A stretch of DNA of 64,000 bases from a plasmid. The translations under genes and the position numbers were made by a program. The DNA lies in the sequence record NZ_CP023785.1, one strand, 5' to 3'. Under the pieces are notes generated by a model that ran no database searches, had not been told where the DNA came from, and saw only the letters and a list, made by a program, of their open reading frames with translations. How positions within the stretch are numbered: the stretch's first letter is position 1; each line of letters starts with the position of its first letter. This document shows, piece after piece, positions 2,656 to 62,859 of this stretch.

Positions 2656-4807
<2,152 letters not shown>

Positions 4808-4808
4808 T

Positions 4809-6572
4809 TGTCAATATAGTTGTCGTATTTTTATTTTCCACCTATCAAAAAGCAGAACCTCCCTATGGTCGGTTGGCCTCGTTATCCAATAGGGGAAGAA
4901 TAACTTTTTCCCCTATTGGGTGACGAGGGTTATTTGATAATCTTGAAAGATTATGCTCCTGTTAACTTTCTGTTTCTTTTAAAGGATTCAACGCCACCGA
5001 TTGATGTGGAGTCCAATTTCGAACACCTTTTGACCAGCGTTCAGGATGGCGCTTTTTAGCGTCCTCGTAAACCTGCTTTCGTTTCTCTAAAATAGCGAGA
5101 TGTCGTCCTTCATGACACGCTGCAGGAGACACAAATTGAATCCCACTATGCAAATGAGAATCGTTATACCAATCGACAAACTCTTTCGTCCATTTTCGAG
5201 CATCATCTATTGTTTTAAAGCCGTTATTGGGATATTCTGGTCGATATTTTAACGTTCGGAAAGCCGCTTCCGAATAAGGATTGTCATTACTCACTCGTGG
5301 TCTTGAATAAGAACTTTGAATTCCTAATTTTTCGAGTAAGACTTGAAAAGTCGCGGCTTTCATAGGGCTGCCATTATCGGAGTGTAAAACCAACGGCTGT
5401 CCTTGGATACGTTCCTTAAGCACCGTCTGTTTAATAAGTTTTTCGGCATGACGAGCTTCTTCTGATTCCCAAATCTCCCAGCCTACCATTTTACGGCTAA
5501 ATAAATCAATGATGAGATATAACCGGTAAAAGAGTCCTTTTATTGGACCTTTTAGCCAAGTAATATCCCAAGTCCAAACTTCATTTGGCTTCGTCGCAAG
5601 GTGACTTGGCGGTATGCGTTTTTGTGAAACTTGACTTCGGCCACGGTGATGTTGCATATTTTTTTCTCGCAATACACGATAGAAGCTAGACTCTGATGCA
5701 ATATAAATCGAGCAATCCGCAAGTTTTGGTACAATTTGGCTAGGTGGCAAATTCATAAATTCTTTTTTTGAAACGGTTTCTATTATTTTTTCGCGTTCTT
5801 GATCCGTCAGTTTATTTTTGGGTACAGGACGTTTCGCCAAAGGGCGTTGATCATGCGCTATCGTACCTTCACGCGTCCATCGTTCGTAGGTTCGAACGCT
5901 AATATTCAGCTCATTACAGGCATAGGTGAGACGGGCCCCATTGCGATTGGCTTCTTGAATAAGTTCAACAGCTTGTTTGCGATCTGAAGATGAAATCATT
6001 CTTCCTCTTGGTCCCCCCCAAATCGCGTGTGCTTTTTTTCTTAGTAATAAGAGAGCAGCGGCTTCCGCTAATGCTTTTTCCTTATGACGTAATTCTTTCT
6101 CTAATTGACGCGCTTGTTTTTTCTCTTCTTTTAGTTCAGTTGCAAGTTCTCTCGTTCGATTTTCTTCCTGTTCATTCGCAGATAAGCACGTTTTCTTCCA
6201 AGCCTCAATTTGTTCTTTAAATAAGCCCTTCTTTCGGCAATATTCCGCAAGTTCTACTTGGTTCATTGAGAATGATTCCATCACAATTAAAAATTTATCT
6301 TCACTTGACCATTTTTCGACATTTTTTTTCGTTCCGGGTGTAGTATTCCCTTGAATTCTAGCTTTTTTACGCCAAGAACAAAGAGTCGCTTCTGGAATGC
6401 CCAAAGTTTGACTTAATTGGCGAATCCCCCTATTTTCGGGTGGCATCATTTTCTTGATGGCTGTCGCTTTCAGTTCGGTAGAGTAACGTTCATTGTTTTT
6501 ATTTGTCATGGTAATCATCCTCCGTATAGTCTTTATTATAACTTATTATCCTATACGACAACTAGCCTAACA
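4809..6572 (-). mobile_element. IS3-family element (~1.76 kb) with terminal IRs tgt(c/t)a..tagttgtcgtat and a 19-bp internal hairpin 4856-4912
   Basis: Ends were defined by comparing 4809-4840 with the reverse complement of 6548-6572. There is no TSD; on both sides the element abuts truncated genes. Confidence 0.55.
4962..6518 (-). CDS. IS3-family transposase, OrfA-OrfB fused in one 518-aa frame (HTH + leucine zipper + rve DDE core)
   Basis: N-terminal HTH and zipper ELATELKEEKKQARQLEKEL; C-terminal integrase core WTWDITW..HSDNGSPMKA.. Confidence 0.75.
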   Translation of the reverse strand: MITMTNKNNERYSTELKATAIKKMMPPENRGIRQLSQTLGIPEATLCSWRKKARIQGNTTPGTKKNVEKWSSEDKFLIVMESFSMNQVELAEYCRKKGLFKEQIEAWKKTCLSANEQEENRTRELATELKEEKKQARQLEKELRHKEKALAEAAALLLLRKKAHAIWGGPRGRMISSSDRKQAVELIQEANRNGARLTYACNELNISVRTYERWTREGTIAHDQRPLAKRPVPKNKLTDQEREKIIETVSKKEFMNLPPSQIVPKLADCSIYIASESSFYRVLREKNMQHHRGRSQVSQKRIPPSHLATKPNEVWTWDITWLKGPIKGLFYRLYLIIDLFSRKMVGWEIWESEEARHAEKLIKQTVLKERIQGQPLVLHSDNGSPMKAATFQVLLEKLGIQSSYSRPRVSNDNPYSEAAFRTLKYRPEYPNNGFKTIDDARKWTKEFVDWYNDSHLHSGIQFVSPAACHEGRHLAILEKRKQVYEDAKKRHPERWSKGVRNWTPHQSVALNPLKETES

Positions 6573-8100: not shown

Positions 8101-8531
8101 GGTTCTGTTGCAAAGTTTTAAATAAAGAATAAAATCCCTTACGGTATCTATGATTTAAGCTGGGATTCCCAATAATACCTTGATTTCAGTACAGACCGAA
8201 AACCCGAAGAGAGTGCCTTCTTTCCGGGTTTTCTTATATAATCCTCGAATGGCTTCCATGCCTTTAATCGTGGTAGAGGCAGTGCGTAAACTTCGATAGA
8301 ATTTATTGCGTCTCTTTACTGGACGATGGTCTTGTTCAATCAAATTATTCAGGTATTTAATGGTACGATGTTCTGTCCCTTGATAAAAGCCGTATTCTTT
8401 TAGTTTCTTAAAGGCACTTGTAATAGAGGGGGCTTTATCTGTGACTACAACCTTCGGTTCATCAAACTGCTTCACTAACCGCTTAAGAAAAGCATAGGCT
8501 GCTTGTGTGTCCCGTTTTTTACGTAACCAAA
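8101..8531 (-). mobile_element. IS1216 3' fragment (IR + C-terminal ~120 codons), truncated by insertion of a second IS6 element
   Basis: IR at 8101-8119; translation WLRKKRDTQAAYAFLKRLVKQFDEPKVVV... identical to intact copies. Confidence 0.85.
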
Positions 8532-9339
8532 GGTTCTGTTGCAAAGTTTTCCAAAAAATCTATTTTAGTGTAAAATTGAGAAAAAAGACAGAGAGGACAG
8601 AGTAATGAATCATTTTAAAGGCAAACAATTCAAAAAAGACGTCATTATTGTCGCTGTTGGTTACTACCTGCGTTACAATCTAAGCTATCGTGAAGTTCAG
8701 GAATTGTTATATGATCGTGGAATAAATGTTTGTCATACTACGATTTATCGTTGGGTGCAAGAGTACAGCAAAGTCCTCTATTATCTTTGGAAGAAGAAAA
8801 ATAGACAATCCTTCTATTCATGGAAAATGGACGAAACCTATATCAAAATTAAGGGACGTTGGCATTATCTTTATCGTGCAATTGATGCGGACGGCTTAAC
8901 CTTAGATATCTGGTTACGAAAGAAACGGGATACGCAAGCAGCCTATGCTTTCTTAAAACGACTCCATAAACAGTTTGGTGAGCCGAAAGCAATTGTGACC
9001 GATAAAGCACCTTCTCTTGGCTCCGCCTTTAGAAAGTTACAGAGTGTGGGTTTATATACTAAGACAGAGCACCGAACTGTGAAGTATCTTAACAATTTAA
9101 TAGAACAAGACCATCGACCTATTAAACGACGAAATAAATTTTATCAAAGTCTCCGTACAGCCTCTTCCACGATTAAGGGCATGGAGACCATTCGAGGAAT
9201 ATATAAAAAGAACCGAAGAAATGGAACGCTCTTCGGCTTTTCGGTGTCTACTGAAATCAAGGTATTAATGGGAATAACAGCCTAAGATATTTGGAGTTCA
9301 GAGAGGGCGCGTTTGATTTTCAAACTTCGCAACAGAACC
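8532..9339 (+). mobile_element. IS6-family element, variant related to but distinct from IS1216 (IRs ggttctgttgcaaagttt / aaacttcgcaacagaacc)
   Basis: IRs read directly; tnp ~80% identical at protein level to IS1216 copies. Confidence 0.85.
8605..9285 (+). CDS. IS6-family transposase (226 aa, variant)
   Basis: MNHFKGKQFKKDVIIVAVGYYLRYNLSYREVQELLYDRGINVCHTTIYRW... Confidence 0.9.
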   Translation: MNHFKGKQFKKDVIIVAVGYYLRYNLSYREVQELLYDRGINVCHTTIYRWVQEYSKVLYYLWKKKNRQSFYSWKMDETYIKIKGRWHYLYRAIDADGLTLDIWLRKKRDTQAAYAFLKRLHKQFGEPKAIVTDKAPSLGSAFRKLQSVGLYTKTEHRTVKYLNNLIEQDHRPIKRRNKFYQSLRTASSTIKGMETIRGIYKKNRRNGTLFGFSVSTEIKVLMGITA

Positions 9340-15556: not shown

Positions 15557-16375
15557 TAAGATAATTGGTTCTGTTGCAAAGTTTTAAATCTACTATCAAA
15601 TAAGATAGAATAATAGAAAAAGATAGCAGGAGGAATAACGATGAATCATTTTAAAGGAAAGCAATTTCAGCAGGATGTGATTATTGTAGCCGTGGGCTAC
15701 TATCTTCGTTATAACCTTAGCTATCGTGAAGTTCAAGAAATCTTATATGATCGTGACATTAACGTTTCTCATACGACGATTTATCGTTGGGTGCAAGAAT
15801 ATGGCAAACTACTCTATCAAATTTGGAAAAAGAAAAATAAAAAATCCTTTTATTCATGGAAAATGGATGAAACGTACATCAAAATTAAAGGAAAATGGCA
15901 TTATTTGTATCGAGCCATCGATGCAGATGGTTTAACCTTGGATATTTGGTTACGTAAAAAACGGGACACACAAGCAGCCTATGCTTTTCTTAAGCGGTTA
16001 GTGAAGCAGTTTGATGAACCGAAGGTTGTAGTCACAGATAAAGCCCCCTCTATTACAAGTGCCTTTAAGAAACTAAAAGAATACGGCTTTTATCAAGGGA
16101 CAGAACATCGTACCATTAAATACCTGAATAATTTGATTGAACAAGACCATCGTCCAGTAAAGAGACGCAATAAATTCTATCGAAGTTTACGCACTGCCTC
16201 TACCACGATTAAAGGCATGGAAGCCATTCGAGGATTATATAAGAAAACCCGAAAAGAAGGCACTCTCTTCGGGTTTTCGGTCTGTACTGAAATCAAGGTA
16301 TTATTGGGAATCCCAGCTTAAATCATAGATACCGTAAGGGATTTTATTCTTTATTTAAAACTTTGCAACAGAACC
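15557..16375 (+). mobile_element. IS1216 (IS6 family), intact
   Basis: 18-bp IRs ggttctgttgcaaagttt at both ends, 226-aa tnp. Confidence 0.95.
15641..16321 (+). CDS. IS1216 transposase
   Basis: MNHFKGKQFQQDVIIVAVGYYLRYNLSYREVQEILYDRDINVSHTTIYRW... Confidence 0.95.
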   Translation: MNHFKGKQFQQDVIIVAVGYYLRYNLSYREVQEILYDRDINVSHTTIYRWVQEYGKLLYQIWKKKNKKSFYSWKMDETYIKIKGKWHYLYRAIDADGLTLDIWLRKKRDTQAAYAFLKRLVKQFDEPKVVVTDKAPSITSAFKKLKEYGFYQGTEHRTIKYLNNLIEQDHRPVKRRNKFYRSLRTASTTIKGMEAIRGLYKKTRKEGTLFGFSVCTEIKVLLGIPA

Positions 16376-18572: not shown

Positions 18573-19381
18573 GGTTCTGTTGCAAAGTTTTAAATCTACT
18601 ATCAAATAAGATAGAATAATAGAAAAAGATAGCAGGAGGAATAACGATGAATCATTTTAAAGGAAAGCAATTTCAGCAGGATGTGATTATTGTAGCCGTG
18701 GGCTACTATCTTCGTTATAACCTTAGCTATCGTGAAGTTCAAGAAATCTTATATGATCGTGACATTAACGTTTCTCATACGACGATTTATCGTTGGGTGC
18801 AAGAATATGGCAAACTACTCTATCAAATTTGGAAAAAGAAAAATAAAAAATCCTTTTATTCATGGAAAATGGATGAAACGTACATCAAAATTAAAGGAAA
18901 ATGGCATTATTTGTATCGAGCCATCGATGCAGATGGTTTAACCTTGGATATTTGGTTACGTAAAAAACGGGACACACAAGCAGCCTATGCTTTTCTTAAG
19001 CGGTTAGTGAAGCAGTTTGATGAACCGAAGGTTGTAGTCACAGATAAAGCCCCCTCTATTACAAGTGCCTTTAAGAAACTAAAAGAATACGGCTTTTATC
19101 AAGGGACAGAACATCGTACCATTAAATACCTGAATAATTTGATTGAACAAGACCATCGTCCAGTAAAGAGACGCAATAAATTCTATCGAAGTTTACGCAC
19201 TGCCTCTACCACGATTAAAGGCATGGAAGCCATTCGAGGATTATATAAGAAAACCCGAAAAGAAGGCACTCTCTTCGGGTTTTCGGTCTGTACTGAAATC
19301 AAGGTATTATTGGGAATCCCAGCTTAAATCATAGATACCGTAAGGGATTTTATTCTTTATTTAAAACTTTGCAACAGAACC
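18573..19381 (+). mobile_element. IS1216, intact
   Basis: IRs at both ends. Confidence 0.95.
18647..19327 (+). CDS. IS1216 transposase
   Basis: identical to 15641-16321. Confidence 0.95.
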   Translation: MNHFKGKQFQQDVIIVAVGYYLRYNLSYREVQEILYDRDINVSHTTIYRWVQEYGKLLYQIWKKKNKKSFYSWKMDETYIKIKGKWHYLYRAIDADGLTLDIWLRKKRDTQAAYAFLKRLVKQFDEPKVVVTDKAPSITSAFKKLKEYGFYQGTEHRTIKYLNNLIEQDHRPVKRRNKFYRSLRTASTTIKGMEAIRGLYKKTRKEGTLFGFSVCTEIKVLLGIPA

Positions 19382-33419: not shown

Positions 33420-33530
33420 ATACTATTATAACATATTTATTTTTAGTTACTACCAAAAAAAAGATATATATGTACTACCTTATAATTAATAAGGAAAAGG
33501 TAGTACATAAATAAGGAAAAGCTGAAATAT
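33420..33530. repeat. iterons upstream of parA (tagttactacc; inverted pair tgtactacctta ... aaggtagtacat)
   Basis: same GGTAGTA motif as the large array at 62.3-63.9 kb. Confidence 0.5.
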
Positions 33531-33669
33531 ATTGATTTATAGCTTTCCTCAAAGTAATGACGTTATTTAATTTATCGAGAAGCAGAGAATACTCGCGACT
33601 TTAGTCATGTAGACGAATCAGATTTTCGATAAAAAAGAAGCCGTCCTTCTTAAGAACGACAACAAATCA

Positions 33670-33957
33670 CTAGATTAATTTTTTCAACTGATCATAAAAG
33701 TTTTCATGCGTTCCACATAACAATACTGGAATAACCTTGTTTTCTATAATCTCGTAAGCTACTCTATATGTTGTGCCCGCATATTTGAACCCACTAGACC
33801 AAATACCTGATAAATCCCCAGTTTTTTGTTCACCCTTATATGGATCAATCGCAATTTCATCATAAATTAAATTCAAAAATTTTTCTTTCAATGGCTTCTC
33901 TTTTAGCTTTTTTAAATACTTAATGACATGTTTTGAAGGAACGATTTCATAAGCCAA
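33670..33957 (-). CDS. RelE/ParE-superfamily toxin (95 aa)
   Basis: C-terminal ...GTTYRVAYEIIENKVIPVLLCGTHENFY fold pattern; 11-bp overlap with upstream antitoxin gene. Confidence 0.65.
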   Translation of the reverse strand: MAYEIVPSKHVIKYLKKLKEKPLKEKFLNLIYDEIAIDPYKGEQKTGDLSGIWSSGFKYAGTTYRVAYEIIENKVIPVLLCGTHENFYDQLKKLI

Positions 33958-34276
33958 TTTCTGTTGCCAACTCCTCTTTAGTCATTACTTTAGAATTAGT
34001 AAGTGTATCTTCAGCAATATCTCTAAAGGAAGAATGCATTTTGTTTTTTCTATTCTTAAATTCTACAAGAATCTCATCTTTATCGTAGCCTTCTGCAATT
34101 ATATCAGACAAAATATCTTCGCTAAAATCATAAAATTCTTTTTGTGGTTCAACAAATTCATAAAGAATACCATTCTCTACCAACTTTGCTTCAACTTCGA
34201 CTCCATTAGGAACATTAAAATCTTTAGGTACTGTCAACATGATTGAATTGCCTTGTTTTCTTGTTTTTGTAATCAT
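33947..34276 (-). CDS. AbrB/MazE-fold antitoxin (109 aa)
   Basis: N-terminal swapped-hairpin motif ITKTRKQGNSIMLTVPKDF; palindromic operator around extended -10 tggtataat at 34290-34350. Confidence 0.6.
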   Translation of the reverse strand: MITKTRKQGNSIMLTVPKDFNVPNGVEVEAKLVENGILYEFVEPQKEFYDFSEDILSDIIAEGYDKDEILVEFKNRKNKMHSSFRDIAEDTLTNSKVMTKEELATEIGL

Positions 34277-34370
34277 TTAAATCCCTCATTTCTAACAGTA
34301 TGTAATTACTTAGTAAATACATTATACCACGAGATAATGTATTTACAAGTAATTACTGTGACTCGTAATG

Positions 34371-35178
34371 GGTTCTGTTGCAAAGTTTTAAATAAAGAAT
34401 AAAATCCCTTACGGTATCTATGATTTAAGCTGGGATTCCCAATAATACCTTGATTTCAGTACAGACCGAAAACCCGAAGAGAGTGCCTTCTTTTCGGGTT
34501 TTCTTATATAATCCTCGAATGGCTTCCATGCCTTTAATCGTGGTAGAGGCAGTGCGTAAACTTCGATAGAATTTATTGCGTCTCTTTACTGGACGATGGT
34601 CTTGTTCAATCAAATTATTCAGGTATTTAATGGTACGATGTTCTGTCCCTTGATAAAAGCCGTATTCTTTTAGTTTCTTAAAGGCACTTGTAATAGAGGG
34701 GGCTTTATCTGTGACTACAACCTTCGGTTCATCAAACTGCTTCACTAACCGCTTAAGAAAAGCATAGGCTGCTTGTGTGTCCCGTTTTTTACGTAACCAG
34801 ATATCTAAGGTTAAGCCGTCCGCATCAATTGCACGATAAAGATAATGCCAACGTCCCTTAATTTTGATATAGGTTTCGTCCATTTTCCATGAATAGAAGG
34901 ATTGTCTATTTTTCTTCTTCCAAAGATAATAGAGGACTTTGCTGTACTCTTATACCCAACGATAAATCGTAGTATGACAAACATTTATTCCACGATCATA
35001 TAACAATTCCTGAACTTCACGATAGCTTAGATTGTAACGCAGGTAGTAACCAACAGCGACAATAATGACGTCTTTTTTGAATTGTTTGCCTTTAAAATGA
35101 TTCATTACTCTGTCCTCTCTGTCTTTTTTCTCAATTTTACACTAAAATAGATTTTTTGGAAAACTTTGCAACAGAACC
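34371..35178 (-). mobile_element. IS6-family element, hybrid (5' third like the 8605 variant, remainder IS1216) with an in-frame TAA nonsense codon (Gln->stop at 34950-34952)
   Basis: IRs at both ends; CAA->TAA relative to copy at 8605. Confidence 0.85.
34425..35100 (-). pseudogene. IS6 transposase inactivated by nonsense mutation
   Basis: W V * E Y S at position where other copy reads W V Q E Y S. Confidence 0.8.
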
Positions 35179-35460
35179 GAAATGAGTATAGTATGAATTA
35201 GTAATTTGGTTTTCATCTAAGTTTAGCTTTGATTTACTAAAATTGATATCTCGATACATGTTCAATACATCTAATACAAATCGAGAATCTTCTTTCGGAA
35301 ATGGCTCAGAAAGATCACTCCAAATTTCATCATCATAATGATACTCGTAACCTTCTCTCAATATTTCGATTTTTCTTTCATAATAAGATCTGTTTTGGTC
35401 CTCAAATTTAGCCAATAACTCAAATTGATTTACTAGTGACAATCTCTGAAAACTGTCCAT
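35179..35460 (-). pseudogene. YfbU-family (UPF0304) protein, C-terminally truncated by the IS6 element
   Basis: QRLSLVNQFELL...RFVLDVLNMYRDI parallels YfbU N-terminal half; ORF reads into the IS IR. Confidence 0.45.
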
Positions 35461-51898: not shown

Positions 51899-52707
51899 GG
51901 TTCTGTTGCAAAGTTTTAAATCTACTATCAAATAAGGTAGAATAATAGAAAAAGATAGCAGGAGGAATGACGATGAATCATTTTAAAGGAAAGCAATTTC
52001 AGCAGGATGTGATTATTGTAGCCGTGGGCTACTATCTTCGTTATAACCTTAGCTATCGTGAAGTTCAAGAAATCTTATATGATCGTGGCATTAACGTTTC
52101 TCATGCGACGATTTATCGTTGGGTGCAAGAATATGGCAAACTACTCTATCAAATTTGGAAAAAGAAAAATAAAAAATCCTTTTATTCATGGAAAATGGAT
52201 GAAACGTACATCAAAATTAAAGGAAAATGGCATTATTTGTATCGAGCCATCGATGCAGATGGTTTAACCTTGGATATTTGGTTACGTAAAAAACGGGACA
52301 CACAAGCAGCCTATGCTTTTCTTAAGCGGTTAGTGAAGCAGTTTGATGAACCGAAGGTTGTAGTCACAGATAAAGCCCCCTCTATTACAAGTGCCTTTAA
52401 GAAACTAAAAGAATACGGCTTTTATCAAGGGACAGAACATCGTACCATTAAATACCTGAATAATTTGATTGAACAAGACCATCGTCCAGTAAAGAGACGC
52501 AATAAATTCTATCGAAGTTTACGCACTGCCTCTACCACGATTAAAGGCATGGAAGCCATTCGAGGATTATATAAGAAAACCCGAAAAGAAGGCACTCTCT
52601 TCGGGTTTTCGGTCTGTACTGAAATCAAGGTATTATTGGGAATCCCAGCTTAAATCATAGATACCGTAAGGGATTTTATTCTTTATTTAAAACTTTGCAA
52701 CAGAACC
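51899..52707 (+). mobile_element. IS1216, intact
   Basis: IRs both ends. Confidence 0.95.
51973..52653 (+). CDS. IS1216 transposase
   Basis: as above. Confidence 0.95.
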   Translation: MNHFKGKQFQQDVIIVAVGYYLRYNLSYREVQEILYDRGINVSHATIYRWVQEYGKLLYQIWKKKNKKSFYSWKMDETYIKIKGKWHYLYRAIDADGLTLDIWLRKKRDTQAAYAFLKRLVKQFDEPKVVVTDKAPSITSAFKKLKEYGFYQGTEHRTIKYLNNLIEQDHRPVKRRNKFYRSLRTASTTIKGMEAIRGLYKKTRKEGTLFGFSVCTEIKVLLGIPA

Positions 52708-56911: not shown

Positions 56912-57720
56912 GGTTCTGTTGCAAAGTTTTAAATAAAGAATAAAATCCCTTACGGTATCTATGATTTAAGCTGGGATTCCCAATAATACCTTGATTTCAG
57001 TACAGACCGAAAACCCGAAGAGAGTGCCTTCTTTTCGGGTTTTCTTATATAATCCTCGAATGGCTTCCATGCCTTTAATCGTGGTAGAGGCAGTGCGTAA
57101 ACTTCGATAGAATTTATTGCGTCTCTTTACTGGACGATGGTCTTGTTCAATCAAATTATTCAGGTATTTAATGGTACGATGTTCTGTCCCTTGATAAAAG
57201 CCGTATTCTTTTAGTTTCTTAAAGGCACTTGTAATAGAGGGGGCTTTATCTGTGACTACAACCTTCGGTTCATCAAACTGCTTCACTAACCGCTTAAGAA
57301 AAGCATAGGCTGCTTGTGTGTCCCGTTTTTTACGTAACCAAATATCCAAGGTTAAACCATCTGCATCGATGGCTCGATACAAATAATGCCATTTTCCTTT
57401 AATTTTGATGTACGTTTCATCCATTTTCCATGAATAAAAGGATTTTTTATTTTTCTTTTTCCAAATTTGATAGAGTAGTTTGCCATATTCTTGCACCCAA
57501 CGATAAATCGTCGCATGAGAAACGTTAATGCCACGATCATATAAGATTTCTTGAACTTCACGATAGCTAAGGTTATAACGAAGATAGTAGCCCACGGCTA
57601 CAATAATCACATCCTGCTGAAATTGCTTTCCTTTAAAATGATTCATCGTCATTCCTCCTGCTATCTTTTTCTATTATTCTACCTTATTTGATAGTAGATT
57701 TAAAACTTTGCAACAGAACC
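56912..57720 (-). mobile_element. IS1216, intact
   Basis: IRs both ends. Confidence 0.95.
56966..57646 (-). CDS. IS1216 transposase
   Basis: as above. Confidence 0.95.
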   Translation of the reverse strand: MNHFKGKQFQQDVIIVAVGYYLRYNLSYREVQEILYDRGINVSHATIYRWVQEYGKLLYQIWKKKNKKSFYSWKMDETYIKIKGKWHYLYRAIDADGLTLDIWLRKKRDTQAAYAFLKRLVKQFDEPKVVVTDKAPSITSAFKKLKEYGFYQGTEHRTIKYLNNLIEQDHRPVKRRNKFYRSLRTASTTIKGMEAIRGLYKKTRKEGTLFGFSVCTEIKVLLGIPA

Positions 57721-58037: not shown

Positions 58038-58846
58038 GGTTCTGTTGCAAAGTTTTAAATAAAGAATAAAATCCCTTACGGTATCTATGATTTAAGCTGG
58101 GATTCCCAATAATACCTTGATTTCAGTACAGACCGAAAACCCGAAGAGAGTGCCTTCTTTTCGGGTTTTCTTATATAATCCTCGAATGGCTTCCATGCCT
58201 TTAATCGTGGTAGAGGCAGTGCGTAAACTTCGATAGAATTTATTGCGTCTCTTTACTGGACGATGGTCTTGTTCAATCAAATTATTCAGGTATTTAATGG
58301 TACGATGTTCTGTCCCTTGATAAAAGCCGTATTCTTTTAGTTTCTTAAAGGCACTTGTAATAGAGGGGGCTTTATCTGTGACTACAACCTTCGGTTCATC
58401 AAACTGCTTCACTAACCGCTTAAGAAAAGCATAGGCTGCTTGTGTGTCCCGTTTTTTACGTAACCAAATATCCAAGGTTAAACCATCTGCATCGATGGCT
58501 CGATACAAATAATGCCATTTTCCTTTAATTTTGATGTACGTTTCATCCATTTTCCATGAATAAAAGGATTTTTTATTTTTCTTTTTCCAAATTTGATAGA
58601 GTAGTTTGCTATATTCTTGCACCCAACGATAAATCGTCGCATGAGAAACGTTAATGCCACGATCATATAAGATTTCTTGAACTTCACGATAGCTAAGGTT
58701 ATAACGAAGATAGTAGTCCACGGCTACAATAATCACATCCTGCTGAAATTGCTTTCCTTTAAAATGATTCATCGTCATTCCTCCTGCTATCTTTTTCTAT
58801 TATTCTACCTTATTTGATAGTAGATTTAAAACTTTGCAACAGAACC
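58038..58846 (-). mobile_element. IS1216, intact (tnp with G->D substitution at codon 20)
   Basis: IRs both ends. Confidence 0.95.
58092..58772 (-). CDS. IS1216 transposase
   Basis: as above. Confidence 0.95.
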   Translation of the reverse strand: MNHFKGKQFQQDVIIVAVDYYLRYNLSYREVQEILYDRGINVSHATIYRWVQEYSKLLYQIWKKKNKKSFYSWKMDETYIKIKGKWHYLYRAIDADGLTLDIWLRKKRDTQAAYAFLKRLVKQFDEPKVVVTDKAPSITSAFKKLKEYGFYQGTEHRTIKYLNNLIEQDHRPVKRRNKFYRSLRTASTTIKGMEAIRGLYKKTRKEGTLFGFSVCTEIKVLLGIPA

Positions 58847-58974
58847 CCCATAGATATATTGGACTTCCTCTTTTAAAACACAAAAATAAATACTACCTTA
58901 TTTAGGTAGTATTTATTAAAAGTTACGTCAATTTTGATTAAAAATATACTACTTGAACCTCTCATGAGTAAAGT

Positions 58975-59245
58975 CACGAAATTTTTGGGAATAGAGCGTA
59001 CTTGATATCTTATTTTTTCACTAATAGCAGTGTCTCTTATTCACCAAGCGATCCCCGTAGTTCCTACGGTTCTTAATTTTTCTCTAGACTAATGATTGTA
59101 TCTTTAGACCTTCGGCCATAACATGGAGCAAAATAAAAAGGTACTAAGTCTTATATATCAATCTTCGAGTAACCGACGGTTAACAACCATATCGAGCGGC
59201 ATTAATCACCCACCTGTAGAGGATGAGCGACTTTTTCCTAATTAT
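58975..59245 (-). mobile_element. miniature IS200/IS605-type derivative (PATE-like): inverted copies of the left-end (59130-59245) and right-end (58975-59085) sequences of the IS605-family element at 59970-61912, without tnpA/tnpB
   Basis: Strong alignment between the reverse complement of 58975-59085 and 61775-61870, and between the reverse complement of 59130-59245 and 59995-60120. Confidence 0.6.
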
Positions 59246-59247
59246 TG

Positions 59248-59565
59248 TTAAAAGCCTAGTTTCATTTGTTTAGATTGGAAAATACGTCCTACAAGTATCT
59301 CTTTTTTTTCATGGTCGATCCGATAAAATAAGGCATAGCTTTTGCCGATCACGATCCGATATGTTGGGATATCCATTCCATAGATTTCGGAAACTTCCTC
59401 ATGCATAGTTGGAAAATTTTTGGTTAGTTCTAAAGCCTTCTGGATCGCACCTACAAATCTTTTTATGCTGGCTGGAGAAAGAGCAAGCTCATTTTCCCAT
59501 TCTTCTATTATCGTTTCAAGGCTGGTCTGAAAACTTTTAGAATAAACTAGCGTGTACTCTTTCAT
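59248..59565 (-). CDS. RelE/ParE-superfamily toxin (105 aa)
   Basis: ParE-like N-terminus YTLVYSKSFQTSLETI, C-terminal ...YRIDHEKKEILVGRIF. Confidence 0.65.
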   Translation of the reverse strand: MKEYTLVYSKSFQTSLETIIEEWENELALSPASIKRFVGAIQKALELTKNFPTMHEEVSEIYGMDIPTYRIVIGKSYALFYRIDHEKKEILVGRIFQSKQMKLGF

Positions 59566-59820
59566 CTATTCACTCCAGCCGTATTTTCCGAAAGCTTTTA
59601 CCATTTCAATTTCTGAAACTGTTAAACCTTTCTCAAAGTCTTGGAAACTTTCTTCAATCAATTTGCGATCGTGTTCTTTTGCTATTTGAGTAGTATCTAA
59701 TATGAATAAGTTGTCTTCTTGTTTGGCTTGGATAATGTCTCCGCTTTTTAATCCAAGAGAGCTTGGAAGGATCACTCCCACGCTATTGCCGATCTTTCTA
59801 ACCTTTAGTTCTTTTCCCAT
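59566..59820 (-). CDS. AbrB/MazE-fold antitoxin (84 aa)
   Basis: KVRKIGNSVGVILPSSL swapped-hairpin motif; perfect 16-bp palindrome ttataacatgttataa at 59857-59872 upstream (operator). Confidence 0.65.
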   Translation of the reverse strand: MGKELKVRKIGNSVGVILPSSLGLKSGDIIQAKQEDNLFILDTTQIAKEHDRKLIEESFQDFEKGLTVSEIEMVKAFGKYGWSE

Positions 59821-60178
59821 GTTATCACACTCCTTTTAGTTTTTGATGAATAAATTATAACATGTTATAACAACAATTGCCAACGGTGTTTCTTAAGGGA
59901 TTCCACTCCATATTATTATTGGACAAAATAAGCCACTTAGAACGCTGAAAACATATACAAACGATATCAAAATACGAGTGAACTACTCACCATACACTTC
60001 CGTTAACATCCATTTAACAGAATTAGGCAGAAGTCGCCCATCCTCTATAGGTGGGTGATGAATGCCGTTCGGTATGAGGGTTACCGTTGGTAACTCGAAG
60101 ACCGACAACTAAGGCGTATTGCCTTTTTATTTTGTCCCATGTTACAATCAGTCTATACAAGAAATGAGTTGATATAAC

Positions 60179-60583
60179 ATGGAATTAGATACAAATAATC
60201 ATTCAGTATTTCTTCTTTATTACCACCTTGTTTTAGTAACGAAATATCGTAGACAAGTGATTGATGATGAAATATCTGATTATGCCAAAACTACTTTTGA
60301 AAGAATTTCAGAATCGTATCACATTACTTTAGTGGAGTGGAATCATGATAAAGACCACGTTCATATTATGTTCAAAGCTCAACCTAAAACAGAATTGACA
60401 AAATTCATCAATGCCTATAAAAGTGCCAGCTCAAGATTGATAAAACGTGACTTTCCAAGAGTCAAACAATTTCTTTGGAAAGAAATGTTCTGGTCTAAAA
60501 GCTTTTGTCTTCTGACAACTGGTGGCGCACCAATTGATGTGATTAAGAAGTATATCCAAAATCAAGGAAACAATCATAAATAG
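60179..60583 (+). CDS. tnpA: IS200/IS605-family Y1 transposase TnpA (134 aa)
   Basis: HuH motif HVHIMF, catalytic Tyr region. Confidence 0.85.
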   Translation: MELDTNNHSVFLLYYHLVLVTKYRRQVIDDEISDYAKTTFERISESYHITLVEWNHDKDHVHIMFKAQPKTELTKFINAYKSASSRLIKRDFPRVKQFLWKEMFWSKSFCLLTTGGAPIDVIKKYIQNQGNNHK

Positions 60584-60590
60584 AAAGTAG

Positions 60591-61748
60591 GTGAACTTTA
60601 TGGAACAACTAAAAGCATACAAATTCAGAATCTATCCAACAGAGGAACAAGAAATCTTCTTTGCCAAATCTTTTGGTTGTGTCCGTAAGGTCTACAATCT
60701 AATGCTTGATGACCGAAAAAAGGCGTATGAAGAAGTTAAAAATGATTCTTCTAAAAAAATGACTTTTCCGACACCAGCTAAATACAAGAAAGAATTTCCG
60801 TTTTTGAAAGAAATTGATAGCCTTGCTTTAGCCAATGCCCAACTTAATTTAGATAAAGCATACAAGAATTTTTTTCGGGATAAATCCGTTGGATTTCCAC
60901 GTTTCAAAAGTAAGAAAAATCCTGTTCAGAGTTATACAACGAATAATCAAAATGGTACAATTGCTTTGATTGATAGTAAATTCATCAAAGTTCCTAAATT
61001 GAAGTCATTAGTAAGAATTAAGCTTCATAGACAACCAAAAGGGATTATCAAATCTGCTACAATATCACGTCATTCTAGCGGTAAATACTATATTTCTTTG
61101 TTGTGTAAAGAAGAAATTATCGAATTACCTAAAACTAATTCCACAATTGGTATTGACTTAGGTATTATGGACTTTGCGATTCTTTCTGATGGACAAAAAA
61201 TTGATAATAATAAATTCACGTCCAAAATGGAAAAGAAACTAAAGCGTGAACAACGCAAATTGTCTAGGCGTGCTTTATTGGCTAAAAATAAAGGTACCAA
61301 TCTATTTGAAGCTAAAAATTATCAAAAACAAAAACGCAAAGTAGCTAGATTGCATGAAAAAGTAATGAATCAACGTACTGATTTTCTGAATAAGTTGAGT
61401 ACAGAAATGATCAAAAATCACGATATTATCTGTATTGAAGACTTAAACACAAAAGGTATGTTGCGAAATCATAAATTAGCTAAAAGTATTTCTGATGTTT
61501 CTTGGTCAAAGTTTGTGACTAAATTACAATACAAGGCTGACTGGTATGGACGAAAAATCATCAAAGTAGATAAATGGTTTCCGTCTAGTCAGATTTGTTC
61601 AGAGTGCGGACATAAAGATGGCAAGAAATCTCTTGAAATTCGAGAATGGACTTGTCCTGTTTGTCATACTCATCATGATCGTGATATCAATGCTAGTATC
61701 AATATTCTGACCGAAGGTCTAAGACTACATTCTATGGGATTGGCTTAG
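60591..61748 (+). CDS. tnpB: IS605-family TnpB (RuvC-like + zinc finger, RNA-guided nuclease family; 385 aa)
   Basis: C-terminal [11 protein letters not shown]...[18 protein letters not shown]. Confidence 0.85.
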
Positions 61749-61984
61749 ATCCAATCATCAAGAACCGTAGGAACTACGGGGATAGCTTGGTAAATAAGAG
61801 ACACCGCTGTTAGTAAAGAAATACGCTATCAAGTATGCTCTATTCCCAAGAAGCTCCCACTTCAAGCGTTAAGAACCGTCAGGTTTAGCTAAGTGGTGAG
61901 TAGTTCACGTAGGTATTTTTATTATATATAGATTTAACATATGTCGGTCGGTTGATTGATATAGCTAAAGTTATAACTCAACCG

Positions 61985-62206
61985 AAGCCGATTCATCTAC
62001 ACGAATAAAGTTGCGAGTGTTCTCGGCTAATTCATAAAAATTGTTATGTGTTCCATATAGCAATACTGGAATAACTTTATTTTCTTGAATCTCATAAGCA
62101 ACTCTATACACGGTGACCGCATACTTAAATCCATTAGACCAATTACCTGATAAACCTCCAGTTTTTTGCTCTTACTTAAATGGATCAATGGCAATTTCAT
62201 CACAAA
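61985..62206 (-). pseudogene. diverged RelE-like toxin paralog (of 33670-33957) with internal stop and 5' truncation by an inverted IS605 LE-like sequence (62207-62245)
   Basis: ~75% nt identity to 33690-33870; TAA at position equivalent to Pro-Tyr; abutting cctatagaggatgagtgacttctgcctaatt. Confidence 0.55.
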
Positions 62207-62493
62207 CCTATAGAGGATGAGTGACTTCTGCCTAATTACGTTAAAAAATATTGAAAGTAACTCTATGTAGCAAAAAATATCTAGAATTTCATTTCCTCAA
62301 AACTGATCGATATTGTATCTAAAAATATATACTACCTAAAATAGGTAGTATATATTAAAATATGTGCTTTTGTTAGAAAAATCAATACATAAATTATCAT
62401 ATCTGTATATGTCATTTAGGTATTTCAGTTATGTTATAATAGTTTTGCTGTCTGCTACCCCGGCCTAATCTGGCAAGGGGAGGAGGAGATATA

Positions 62494-62613
62494 ATGAAAT
62501 ACCTTTTTGATTTTGTTTTTGCAATCAAGCCACTTGCAGATGTAGTGTGCAGTTACCTCTGCAAATGGCTTGATTGCAAAATTGCCAAAAAAGACAGTAA
62601 GCCTACCCGTTAA
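62494..62613 (+). CDS. Fst/Ldr-like type I toxin peptide (39 aa: MKYLFDFVFAIKPLADVVCSYLCKWLDCKIAKKDSKPTR)
   Basis: RBS ggaggagg 7 nt upstream, extended -10 tgttataat at 62432-62440, hydrophobic helix with Pro and ..Y..WL.. followed by charged tail; bidirectional terminator downstream. Confidence 0.55.
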   Translation: MKYLFDFVFAIKPLADVVCSYLCKWLDCKIAKKDSKPTR

Positions 62614-62632
62614 TTCTATAATATAGAAACGT

Positions 62633-62697
62633 AAAAAAAACCCCATCAGCCTGCACGCTGATGGGGTTTGGTGATATAATGAAATACCTCTTTGTTA
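62633..62697 (-). ncRNA. candidate antitoxin RNA (RNA II-like, ~65 nt) from promoter ttgcat-N16-tacaat (62704-62731, minus strand) to the shared terminator; contains the reverse complement of the direct repeat gatataatgaaatacct and is therefore complementary to the toxin translation-initiation region
   Basis: direct repeat at 62488-62504 and 62673-62689 either side of terminator; promoter read from sequence. Confidence 0.45.
62641..62664. terminator. bidirectional terminator ccccatcagc-ctgcac-gctgatgggg flanked by A8 and T-rich tracts
   Basis: 10-bp GC-rich perfect stem. Confidence 0.65.
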
Positions 62698-62859
62698 CTC
62701 ATAATTGTACCATAATTAGTCACGAATGCAACCAATAGAAAAAACTACTTAGAACGGTAGATCATCGCTAATAACAATGCATTGTCCACCAAATGGATTT
62801 TGTGAAGCATTAAATACATTGTTATTAATTGTCGCTGCTTTTAACTAGGCCTCTCCCCT

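Follow-up and report, generated by a model that had tools for sequence, protein, structure and literature searches.

Two AbrB-type toxin-antitoxin pairs on an Enterococcus faecium RepA_N megaplasmid and the IS605-type sequences that accompany one of them

Here we describe two toxin-antitoxin (TA) pairs carried by a stretch of plasmid DNA 64,000 nucleotides (nt) in length (sequence record NZ_CP023785.1; the whole of this stretch is termed the window). Pair 1 (toxin 1 and antitoxin 1) and pair 2 (toxin 2 and antitoxin 2) each join an AbrB-type antitoxin to a toxin of the RelE/ParE superfamily. The explanation that we consider probable is that they are two independent type II TA modules situated in the maintenance regions of an Enterococcus faecium RepA_N megaplasmid, and that the insertion sequence (IS) material of IS605 type found nearby is a by-product. 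What was observed directly is the order of the genes, the families and folds to which the proteins are assigned, the conservation of the operators, the limits of the IS elements with their empty sites, and a distribution confined to a single locus. The coordinates of all features are collected in Table 1.

A 1-kb stretch around pair 1 proved to be 100% identical to several E. faecium plasmids of 150-205 kb, the replicon of which belongs to rep_cluster_893 (the RepA_N / pLG1-like type), and in 342 plasmid records a single match spans at least 80% of that stretch. From these matches the window is assigned to a RepA_N megaplasmid (pLG1-type) of E. faecium. Directly downstream of pair 1 come a gene of the ParA family and one for a partner of 182 amino acids (parA/parB), and the replication initiator gene (repA) is found about 1.7 kb past a pseudo-toxin, downstream of the block that contains pair 2.

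Table 1. Positions in the window of the TA genes, their putative control regions and the IS-derived sequences.
Feature	Position	Strand	Description
IS1216-type transposase fragments	4629-4814, 8158-8544		
IS1216-type transposase copies	8605-9282, 15635-16318, 18641-19324, 34428-35108 (interrupted), 51967-52650, 56969-57652, 58095-58778		
Terminator-like hairpin and T-run	33640-33660	-	Just past the end of toxin 1
Toxin 1	33670-33957	-	95 amino acids, RelE-like, PF15781 ('ParE-like_toxin')
Antitoxin 1	33947-34276	-	109 amino acids, AbrB/MazE-type N-terminal domain (residues ~3-41) and helical C-terminal half
Putative pair 1 promoter/operator	34302-34356	-	Four GTAAWTAC boxes; composite palindrome over -35 and -10
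Interrupted IS1216 copy (IS6 family)	34371-35108	-	Repeated terminal sequence; tblastn 94% identity to IS1216 transposase
Miniature IS200/IS605-type relic ('PATE-like')	58953-59247	-	295 bp: left end, ~30 nt of tnpB 3' end, partial right end
Toxin 2	59248-59565	-	105 amino acids, ParE-like
Antitoxin 2	59566-59820	-	84 amino acids, AbrB-type N-terminus
Putative pair 2 promoter/operator	59854-59883	-	TTGGCA-18-TATAAT and two GTTATAAY boxes 10 bp apart
ISEfa4	60018-61908	+	1891 bp; tnpA 60179-60583, tnpB 60591-61748; named ISEfa4 by RefSeq
Pseudo-toxin	61971-62206	-	Toxin 1-like, from residue 32 (32-88 and onward); in-frame TAA 62172-62174
IS605-type left-end fragment	62196-62245	-	~45 nt and TTTAA target

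The two pairs and their putative operators

At both loci the antitoxin gene comes first and is co-oriented with the toxin gene, which it overlaps or abuts, and this is the layout of a type II TA operon. Toxin 1 is read from a TTG start codon, with an 11-nt overlap with the end of antitoxin 1, while the TAG stop codon of antitoxin 2 abuts the ATG of toxin 2. The same antitoxin-toxin pairing was present in homologs from four other plasmids. An original prediction, made from the letters of the DNA alone, had described both pairs as combinations of an AbrB-type antitoxin with a toxin of RelE/ParE fold, toxin 1 being RelE-like and toxin 2 ParE-like, and the profile hidden Markov model (HMM) searches, Foldseek comparisons and N-terminal homologies reported below agree with it on all of these counts. 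It had also called the pairs paralogous. The common architecture stands; however, recent paralogy does not, as the two toxins aligned with a blastp E=8 and an hhalign probability of 24%, and the alignment of the two antitoxins was limited to the first ~35-40 residues. Judged by these comparisons, the pairs have an architecture and two protein superfamilies in common but are not recent paralogs.

Toxin 1 matched PF15781 with E=4.7e-29 and 100.6 bits (cut-off 28), the match spanning all 87 model positions (1-87). Its score with TIGR02385 RelE_StbE was 27.9 bits, right at the cut-off, and there was a weak match to PF05016 (E=0.011). An alignment of the toxin 1 family (31 members) revealed the conserved motifs YLKKLK, GDL, Y-(R/E)-x-A-Y and G-T-(H/R)-E-N-F-Y. 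When the PDB was searched with single sequences, nothing significant was obtained for any of the four TA proteins, and toxin matches came only with profiles: that of the toxin 1 family detected a Staphylococcus aureus-type YoeB (6.8e-5) and Escherichia coli RelE (1.2e-3), and no ParE at E<=1. It can be seen from the AlphaFold2 (AF2) model of toxin 1 (predicted local distance difference test, pLDDT, 86.7) that the protein would have the two N-terminal helices, antiparallel sheet and C-terminal helix of the RelE/BECR fold. Its nearest folds were those of RelE toxins, with template modelling (TM) scores of 0.72-0.75 compared with ~0.54 for ParE, and the top PDB neighbours were Mycobacterium tuberculosis RelE2 and RelE1, Thermus thermophilus RelE and ribosome-bound E. 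coli RelE (TM 0.75). The helices form a short N-terminal helical hairpin and the conserved (H/R)ENFY motif is C-terminal; in the alignment H84 (R in a sister clade) corresponds to E. coli RelE R81, and F87/Y88 to Y87.

These results bear on the possibility that toxin 1 is, as the Pfam name 'ParE-like toxin' would have it, a gyrase poison of the ParE type and not an mRNA-cleaving toxin (mRNase). The weak PF05016 match would fit such an assignment, but the family profile found YoeB and RelE and no ParE, the model lies closer to RelE than to ParE, and the short N-terminal helical hairpin and (H/R)ENFY motif also speak against it, so that we regard a ParE-type activity as unlikely. The function of PF15781 is unknown, but the family clusters with mRNases (PMC11980606). 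Since profile and fold evidence both point to RelE, the designation 'RelE-like' appears to be right and the Pfam name misleading. We conclude that toxin 1 is RelE-like by sequence profile and by model, and by analogy with RelE and YoeB it most likely cleaves mRNA on the ribosome. As PF15781 holds ~2,000 proteins, the activity of which is formally unknown, the fold and motif evidence added here for a RelE-type mRNase, in spite of the 'ParE-like' name, has modest value.

In some sister megaplasmids, for example plasmid 2 of E. faecium E7040, toxin 1 is frameshifted by contraction of a run of six A residues to five at codons 15-17, and the antitoxin is intact (the frameshifted gene at 3412-3699 of the E7040 record corresponds to 33670-33957 of the window). 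For a toxin 1 copy in other plasmids described as 'truncated at residue 31', insertion of ISEfa4 at the internal TTTAA was ruled out, the change being this A6-to-A5 frameshift. There are sister megaplasmids in which Axe-Txe (Phd/YefM-YoeB) directly precedes the intact antitoxin 1 gene.

Toxin 2 matched PF05016 with E=3.6e-8 and 34.3 bits (cut-off 23); this is a family in which gyrase poisons occur together with mRNases (PMC11980606). In the PDB, a profile built from 31 members detected ParE1 of M. tuberculosis/Caulobacter (8c24, 3kxe) and ParE2 of E. coli O157 (5cw7), with E-values of 3e-4 to 1.2e-3 that placed them ahead of YoeB (0.013). The toxin 2 subfamily is small: in a set of 1.84 billion proteins it forms 47 clusters at 50% identity. 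On these matches toxin 2 is ParE-like, and most likely it poisons DNA gyrase as ParE does.

For antitoxin 1, an AF2 model built with 23 homologs predicts strands at residues 4-8, 11-15, 28-33 and 36-41, a short helix mid-way, and then three helices. The top 21 Foldseek matches in the PDB were all either AbrB-fold VapB proteins (Haemophilus, Caulobacter, Rickettsia) or E. coli MazE; the best E-value was 0.03, and MazE was superposed with a root mean square deviation of 2.9 Å over 44 residues. A profile search of the PDB with the antitoxin 1 family gave no useful match. The only recurrent Pfam match of the family, YwpF on the helical part, was sub-threshold and was dismissed as uninformative. 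We conclude with moderate confidence, from sequence and model, that antitoxin 1 is a swapped-hairpin (AbrB-fold) antitoxin; a monomer model cannot show the swapped dimer itself. Over its first ~40 residues antitoxin 2 shows homology to antitoxin 1 (E=2e-5 with blastp and 7.5e-5 with hhalign), and by this N-terminal homology antitoxin 2 would likewise be of AbrB type.

Upstream of pair 1 there is a predicted promoter, TTGTAA-16-TGgTATAAT, with the -35 element at 34343-34348 and a TG-extended -10 element at 34321-34326. The composite palindrome that covers it has perfect arms of 13 nt (34313-34325 / 34334-34346) and 10 nt (34302-34311 / 34347-34356), the inner and outer arms being one base out of register, and a perfect inverted repeat of at least 13 nt arose in 2 of 20000 shuffles. 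Its GTAAWTAC boxes lie at 34302, 34313, 34339 and 34349, and just five more such sites occur in the rest of the 64 kb. A homolog of pair 1 on a vanA plasmid (78% DNA identity) has two GTAATTAC boxes, 11 bp apart, in the same place. The corresponding element of pair 2 is a perfect 16-nt palindrome, TTATAACATGTTATAA, at 59855-59870, which lies over the -10 of TTGGCA-18-TGTTATAAT and consists of the two GTTATAAY boxes combined; a palindrome as long as this was seen in 7 of 2000 shuffles. Ligilactobacillus salivarius and an Enterococcus sp. have homologs of the pair, with toxin protein identities of 67% and 56%, and both GTTATAAY boxes are kept upstream of these. Taking the two loci together, boxes are conserved in homologs with 56-81% toxin protein identity, and because they are kept across such divergence there is good evidence that the repeated palindromic boxes are operators; they would be autoregulatory, with the antitoxins binding to them. 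The palindromic operators overlapping the promoters were thus correctly foreseen, with their coordinates now amended to 34302-34356 and, for pair 2, to a position 2 nt to the left of that first given.

ISEfa4 and older IS605-type sequences around pair 2

The boundaries of ISEfa4 were taken from empty sites. In E. lactis and E. faecium plasmids, and in E. durans and E. lactis genomes, position 60017 is joined directly to 61909, and the element is therefore 60018-61908. It is inserted 3' of TTTAA (junction TTTAA followed by GTAGG) with no duplication. ISEfa4 encodes a Y1_Tnp transposase (E=1.4e-42) and a protein with the OrfB_IS605 and TNB domains, and each of its ends bears a subterminal hairpin (z -2.5 and -2.3), as expected of the IS200/IS605 family. 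We conclude that the insertion of ISEfa4 between pair 2 and the pseudo-toxin was recent. The target at the left-end junctions, which the original prediction had proposed for examination, is the TTTAA pentamer in each case: it precedes ISEfa4 in the window, a second ISEfa4 copy in another record, the relic and the left-end fragment. Definition of the ISEfa4 ends and of the TTTAA target by empty-site comparison is of modest value in itself.

Two further observations concern the DNA outside the ends of ISEfa4. A stretch of 15 nt at 59978-59992, which starts 40 nt to the left of the left end, shows perfect complementarity to the 15 nt with which the right end closes (61894-61908). The stretch predates the insertion, since the empty sites contain it too, and it may be a remnant of an older inverted right end. 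In addition, the DNA just 3' of the right end of ISEfa4 (61909-61925, GTAGGTATTTTTATTAT) is like that next to the right end of the relic (58952 down to 58936, minus strand, GTAGTATATTTTTAATC); an extended target preference could account for the likeness, as could chance, the DNA being AT-rich.

The relic beside pair 2 begins immediately after a TTTAA that holds the stop codon of toxin 2 (GGC TTT TAA followed by CAATAATTAGG). Its left end (59119-59247) is 81% identical to the left end of ISEfa4, and its right end (58982-59077) is 89% identical over 96 nt to 61757-61852. With only 81-89% identity, the relic would derive from a relative of ISEfa4 and not from ISEfa4 itself. The right end has lost about 30 nt, and the subterminal hairpin with them. 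Compared with ISEfa4 and with PATEs, which are non-autonomous derivatives made of a left end and a right end, the relic keeps the left end with its hairpin, the TTTAA target and most of the right-end/guide-RNA scaffold region; however, it is not a PATE in the sense of an element at several sites that has both ends with hairpins and no transposase. Given that the right-end hairpin is absent and the relic is single-copy, there is no sign of an active PATE family. The original prediction of a miniature IS605 derivative bordering pair 2 was thus borne out, with a span of 58953-59247 in place of 58975-59245, but not as a PATE in this sense.

The relic was found at full length in 344 plasmids, and in the records listed it either adjoins toxin 2 or, where no toxin 2 is annotated beneath the match, lies in a plasmid with toxin 2. 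When the 20-mer across its deletion junction was compared with 185,579 species genomes, the same locus was recovered in E. durans and E. lactis. A third match, in a Bacteroidales metagenome-assembled genome with no other similarity to the window, was treated as chance. The comparison with other genomes that the original prediction had proposed for the PATE and TA arrangement thus led only to the same locus, in these plasmids and in those two species.

TnpB elements encode a guide-RNA scaffold at their right end. An Rfam search gave no match to a TnpB guide-RNA family at the IS605-type ends, and just weak full-length matches to RF02841 Ref70 (Enterococcus sRNA 70) on the right ends, at 58956-59075 (minus strand, 34.5 bits) and 61759-61890 (plus strand, 32.1 bits) compared with a gathering score of 115. 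The Ref70 matches fit a scaffold in that position, and Ref70 may be the TnpB guide-RNA scaffold of a related element. The relic lies right at the toxin 2 stop codon, is oriented like the pair 2 operon and is present with almost every copy of pair 2 in enterococci, so we considered whether it has been retained for a function, with readthrough RNA serving as a 3' stabiliser or terminator of the TA mRNA, or as a guide RNA for the TnpB of ISEfa4 in trans. Were this so, readthrough from the TA promoter would transcribe the left-end hairpin and the guide-RNA-like right-end scaffold of the relic, but we regard this as very improbable.

On the other side of ISEfa4 lies a decayed copy of toxin 1. The region 62032-62206 has 82% DNA identity to toxin 1 (33692-33866), the frame runs on to a stop at 61971, and a partial PF15781 match was obtained (E=1.3e-5). 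Its first 31 codons are replaced by a 45-nt left-end fragment, which with its target (62196-62245) is 88% identical to the ISEfa4 left end at 60013-60062 and has a degraded hairpin stem. This agrees with the original prediction of a third toxin copy, decayed with an in-frame TAA and joined to an inverted IS605-type left end, once the span is extended to 61971-62206. The junction falls inside the heptamer TGATGAA, which is common to the left end and the toxin gene. Such a junction suggests that the remainder of the IS was lost in an illegitimate deletion, together with the antitoxin and 31 codons of the toxin. Two other origins were ruled out. The pseudo-toxin is not a copy of the 81%-identical toxin known from small vanA plasmids (77% to that compared with 82% to toxin 1), and it did not arise through IS insertion into the toxin followed by internal deletion, the DNA upstream of the left-end fragment being unlike toxin codons 1-30.

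How the pairs may work and whether they move

The explanation that we favour would run as follows. Pair 1 lies beside parA and pair 2 just upstream of repA, which would place each of them in a plasmid maintenance region. The AbrB/MazE-type N-terminal domain of the antitoxin is predicted to dimerise and to bind the boxes over its own promoter, giving autoregulation by repression, and the C-terminal part would wrap around and neutralise the cognate toxin. Once the plasmid is lost, the labile antitoxin would decay and the freed toxin would inhibit plasmid-free segregants (post-segregational killing), with toxicity resulting from two different targets: toxin 1 would act as a ribosomal mRNA cleaver and toxin 2 as a gyrase poison. 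The IS200/IS605-type sequences would be by-products of insertion at TTTAA in AT-rich intergenic DNA. An old relative of ISEfa4 may have inserted past the toxin 2 stop codon and decayed to the 295-bp relic, another IS copy presumably recombined with a third TA locus via 7-nt microhomology, at the cost of the antitoxin and the first 31 toxin codons, and ISEfa4 itself is the recent insertion.

Several results weigh against this explanation. Both antitoxins scored under the cut-offs of the nearest curated models: residues 4-38 of antitoxin 1 matched NF047400 MazE/PemI with E=2.1e-9 and 37.1 bits (cut-off 50), and antitoxin 2 matched TIGR02609 doc_partner with E=5.9e-9 and 36.2 bits (cut-off 55.9). 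PF04014 (MazE_antitoxin) matched one of the 23 members of the antitoxin 1 family, with E=0.03, and neither of the antitoxins themselves. E-values of 2e-9 and 6e-9 do nonetheless indicate, on sequence comparison, that the N-terminal ~35-50 residues of the antitoxins are homologous to the MazE/AbrB models. The model of antitoxin 1 is of moderate confidence (pLDDT 73), and all of its Foldseek matches had E>=0.03. In toxin 1, R65 is aligned with RelE R61, yet the residue is E in the sister clade, and for this reason the catalytic assignment is tentative. Pair 1 is dispensable in some megaplasmids, because toxin 1 is frameshifted there. Finally, a literature search found no experimental study on toxicity, neutralisation or plasmid stabilisation by either pair.

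A different account of the region, and the one put forward in the original prediction, is that TA cassettes are moved by single-strand transposition of IS200/IS605 type, either as cargo of PATE-like elements or in association with them. There are indeed three IS605-type sequences no more than 3.4 kb from pair 2 and the pseudo-toxin, the relic has a proper TTTAA target where it meets the toxin 2 stop codon, and on the minus strand the left-end fragment (62245) and the right end of the relic (58953) bracket the pseudo-toxin and pair 2 in left-end-to-right-end order. However, pair 2 is 5' of the relic left end and of the TTTAA target and is therefore outside the relic, not cargo of it; the relic is without the right-end hairpin needed by TnpA, and the hairpin of the left-end fragment is degraded. 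Moreover, the relic is known from a single locus, in 344 plasmids among the records examined and in the genomes of two Enterococcus species, and no IS605-type ends were found within 3 kb of the pair 1 and pair 2 homologs on four other plasmids. IS1216 ends, not IS605 ends, bound both of the TA-bearing segments. With this evidence the shuffling of TA cassettes by IS200/IS605-type transposition did not hold up, and we judge it to be very improbable.

If anything reshuffles these segments, then IS1216 is a better candidate than IS605, because IS1216 ends abut both of them: one is at 34371, 23 bp from the pair 1 -35 element, and another, at 58847, bounds the block with pair 2 on its left. Movement would then occur through cointegrates or translocatable units of IS1216 (IS6 family) and homologous recombination between IS1216 copies, without involvement of IS605-type elements. 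The 64-kb window has seven IS1216 transposase copies and two fragments, the homolog of pair 1 on the vanA plasmid is likewise flanked by IS1216, and IS1216 reportedly drives the evolution of pRUM-like plasmids, to go by the title of a preprint. Against this, the right-hand neighbours of pair 2 (the pseudo-toxin and the repA side) were constant in every record inspected, and we would put the chances of IS1216-mediated shuffling at about even. A role of the modules mainly in abortive infection of phages, and not in plasmid addiction, is also conceivable; judging from the title of PMC11980606, toxins of the RelE/ParE superfamily are discussed as defence toxins. A PADLOC search, however, gave no match at E<=0.01 for any of the four TA proteins, and both pairs are in partition/replication regions and not in a defence island, so that we see a mainly anti-phage role as improbable. 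We therefore retain the explanation of two independent maintenance modules with IS605-type sequences as by-products.

Neighbouring features and relation to known systems

A number of other features of the window were recorded. Between the pseudo-toxin and repA, on the plus strand at 62454-62700, there is a probable type I (par/Fst-like) TA locus, which scored 53.3 bits with Rfam RF02442 SpF66_sRNA (gathering score 42). It contains an open reading frame (ORF) at 62494-62613 for a hydrophobic protein of 39 amino acids with a charged tail, for which a Pfam search gave no match, together with a 28-nt inverted repeat (62517-62581), a terminator hairpin (62638-62669) and the direct repeat GGAGATATAATGAAATACCT at 62485 and 62670. 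Palindromes of the form TACTACCT...AGGTAGTA are located at 33473-33505, 58891-58911 and 62330-62350 (three found, none expected by chance). One of them is upstream of parA and the other two flank the block with pair 2, ISEfa4 and the pseudo-toxin; they may be partition-protein/centromere sites, or terminators. On the minus strand at 35137-35460, an ORF of 107 amino acids matches just the first 94 of the 166 positions of the YfbU domain (E=7e-17). It is labelled 'YfbU family protein' by RefSeq and is apparently truncated, beside an IS1216 copy.

Neither pair is new in itself. RefSeq names the genes of pair 1 'AbrB family transcriptional regulator' and 'type II toxin-antitoxin system RelE/ParE family toxin', and pair 2 and its neighbours are also annotated in hundreds of the same plasmids, with antitoxin 2 again an 'AbrB family transcriptional regulator'. 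The number of plasmid records with the TA pairs is 342 to 537, that is, hundreds of megaplasmids, from E. faecium and E. lactis. For large RepA_N plasmids of E. faecium, 'RelE/AbrB' systems have been named as genes for stabilisation (PMC7018651), and AbrB-RelE pairs were catalogued in 2009, with 27 occurrences (PMC2701414). We conclude that both pairs are ordinary, common and already annotated, and that the significance of the present analysis is small. The host plasmids are clinically important, with vancomycin-resistance and carbohydrate-utilisation genes aboard, and this gives a modest reason for interest.

Among characterised systems, PrlF-YhaV of E. coli is a pair made up of an AbrB-type antitoxin and a RelE-superfamily toxin. 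The pairs described here are like PrlF-YhaV and the AbrB-RelE class in that the gene for a toxin of the RelE superfamily follows that for an antitoxin with the AbrB/SpoVT fold. Unlike YhaV, which is in PF11663, toxin 1 is in PF15781, and antitoxin 1 differs from the antitoxins of that class in its long helical C-terminal half and in scoring below the cut-offs of the curated MazE/AbrB HMMs. The YhaV family is listed as a ribosome-dependent mRNase, and PrlF-YhaV fusions have been recorded (PMC11980606).

RelBE and YefM-YoeB, the latter including Axe-Txe of E. faecium pRUM, provide the closest solved relatives of toxin 1, namely RelE and YoeB, to which its identity is just ~16-22%. Their antitoxins have ribbon-helix-helix or Phd/YefM folds, whereas that of pair 1 is predicted to be of AbrB type. 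For the toxin 2 family the best solved relatives come from ParDE systems (Caulobacter ParE1, M. tuberculosis ParE1 and ParE2 of E. coli O157 PaaA2-ParE2, E=3e-4 to 1e-3). There, too, the difference lies in the partner, which is a ribbon-helix-helix ParD for ParE and, on N-terminal homology, an AbrB-type protein for toxin 2.

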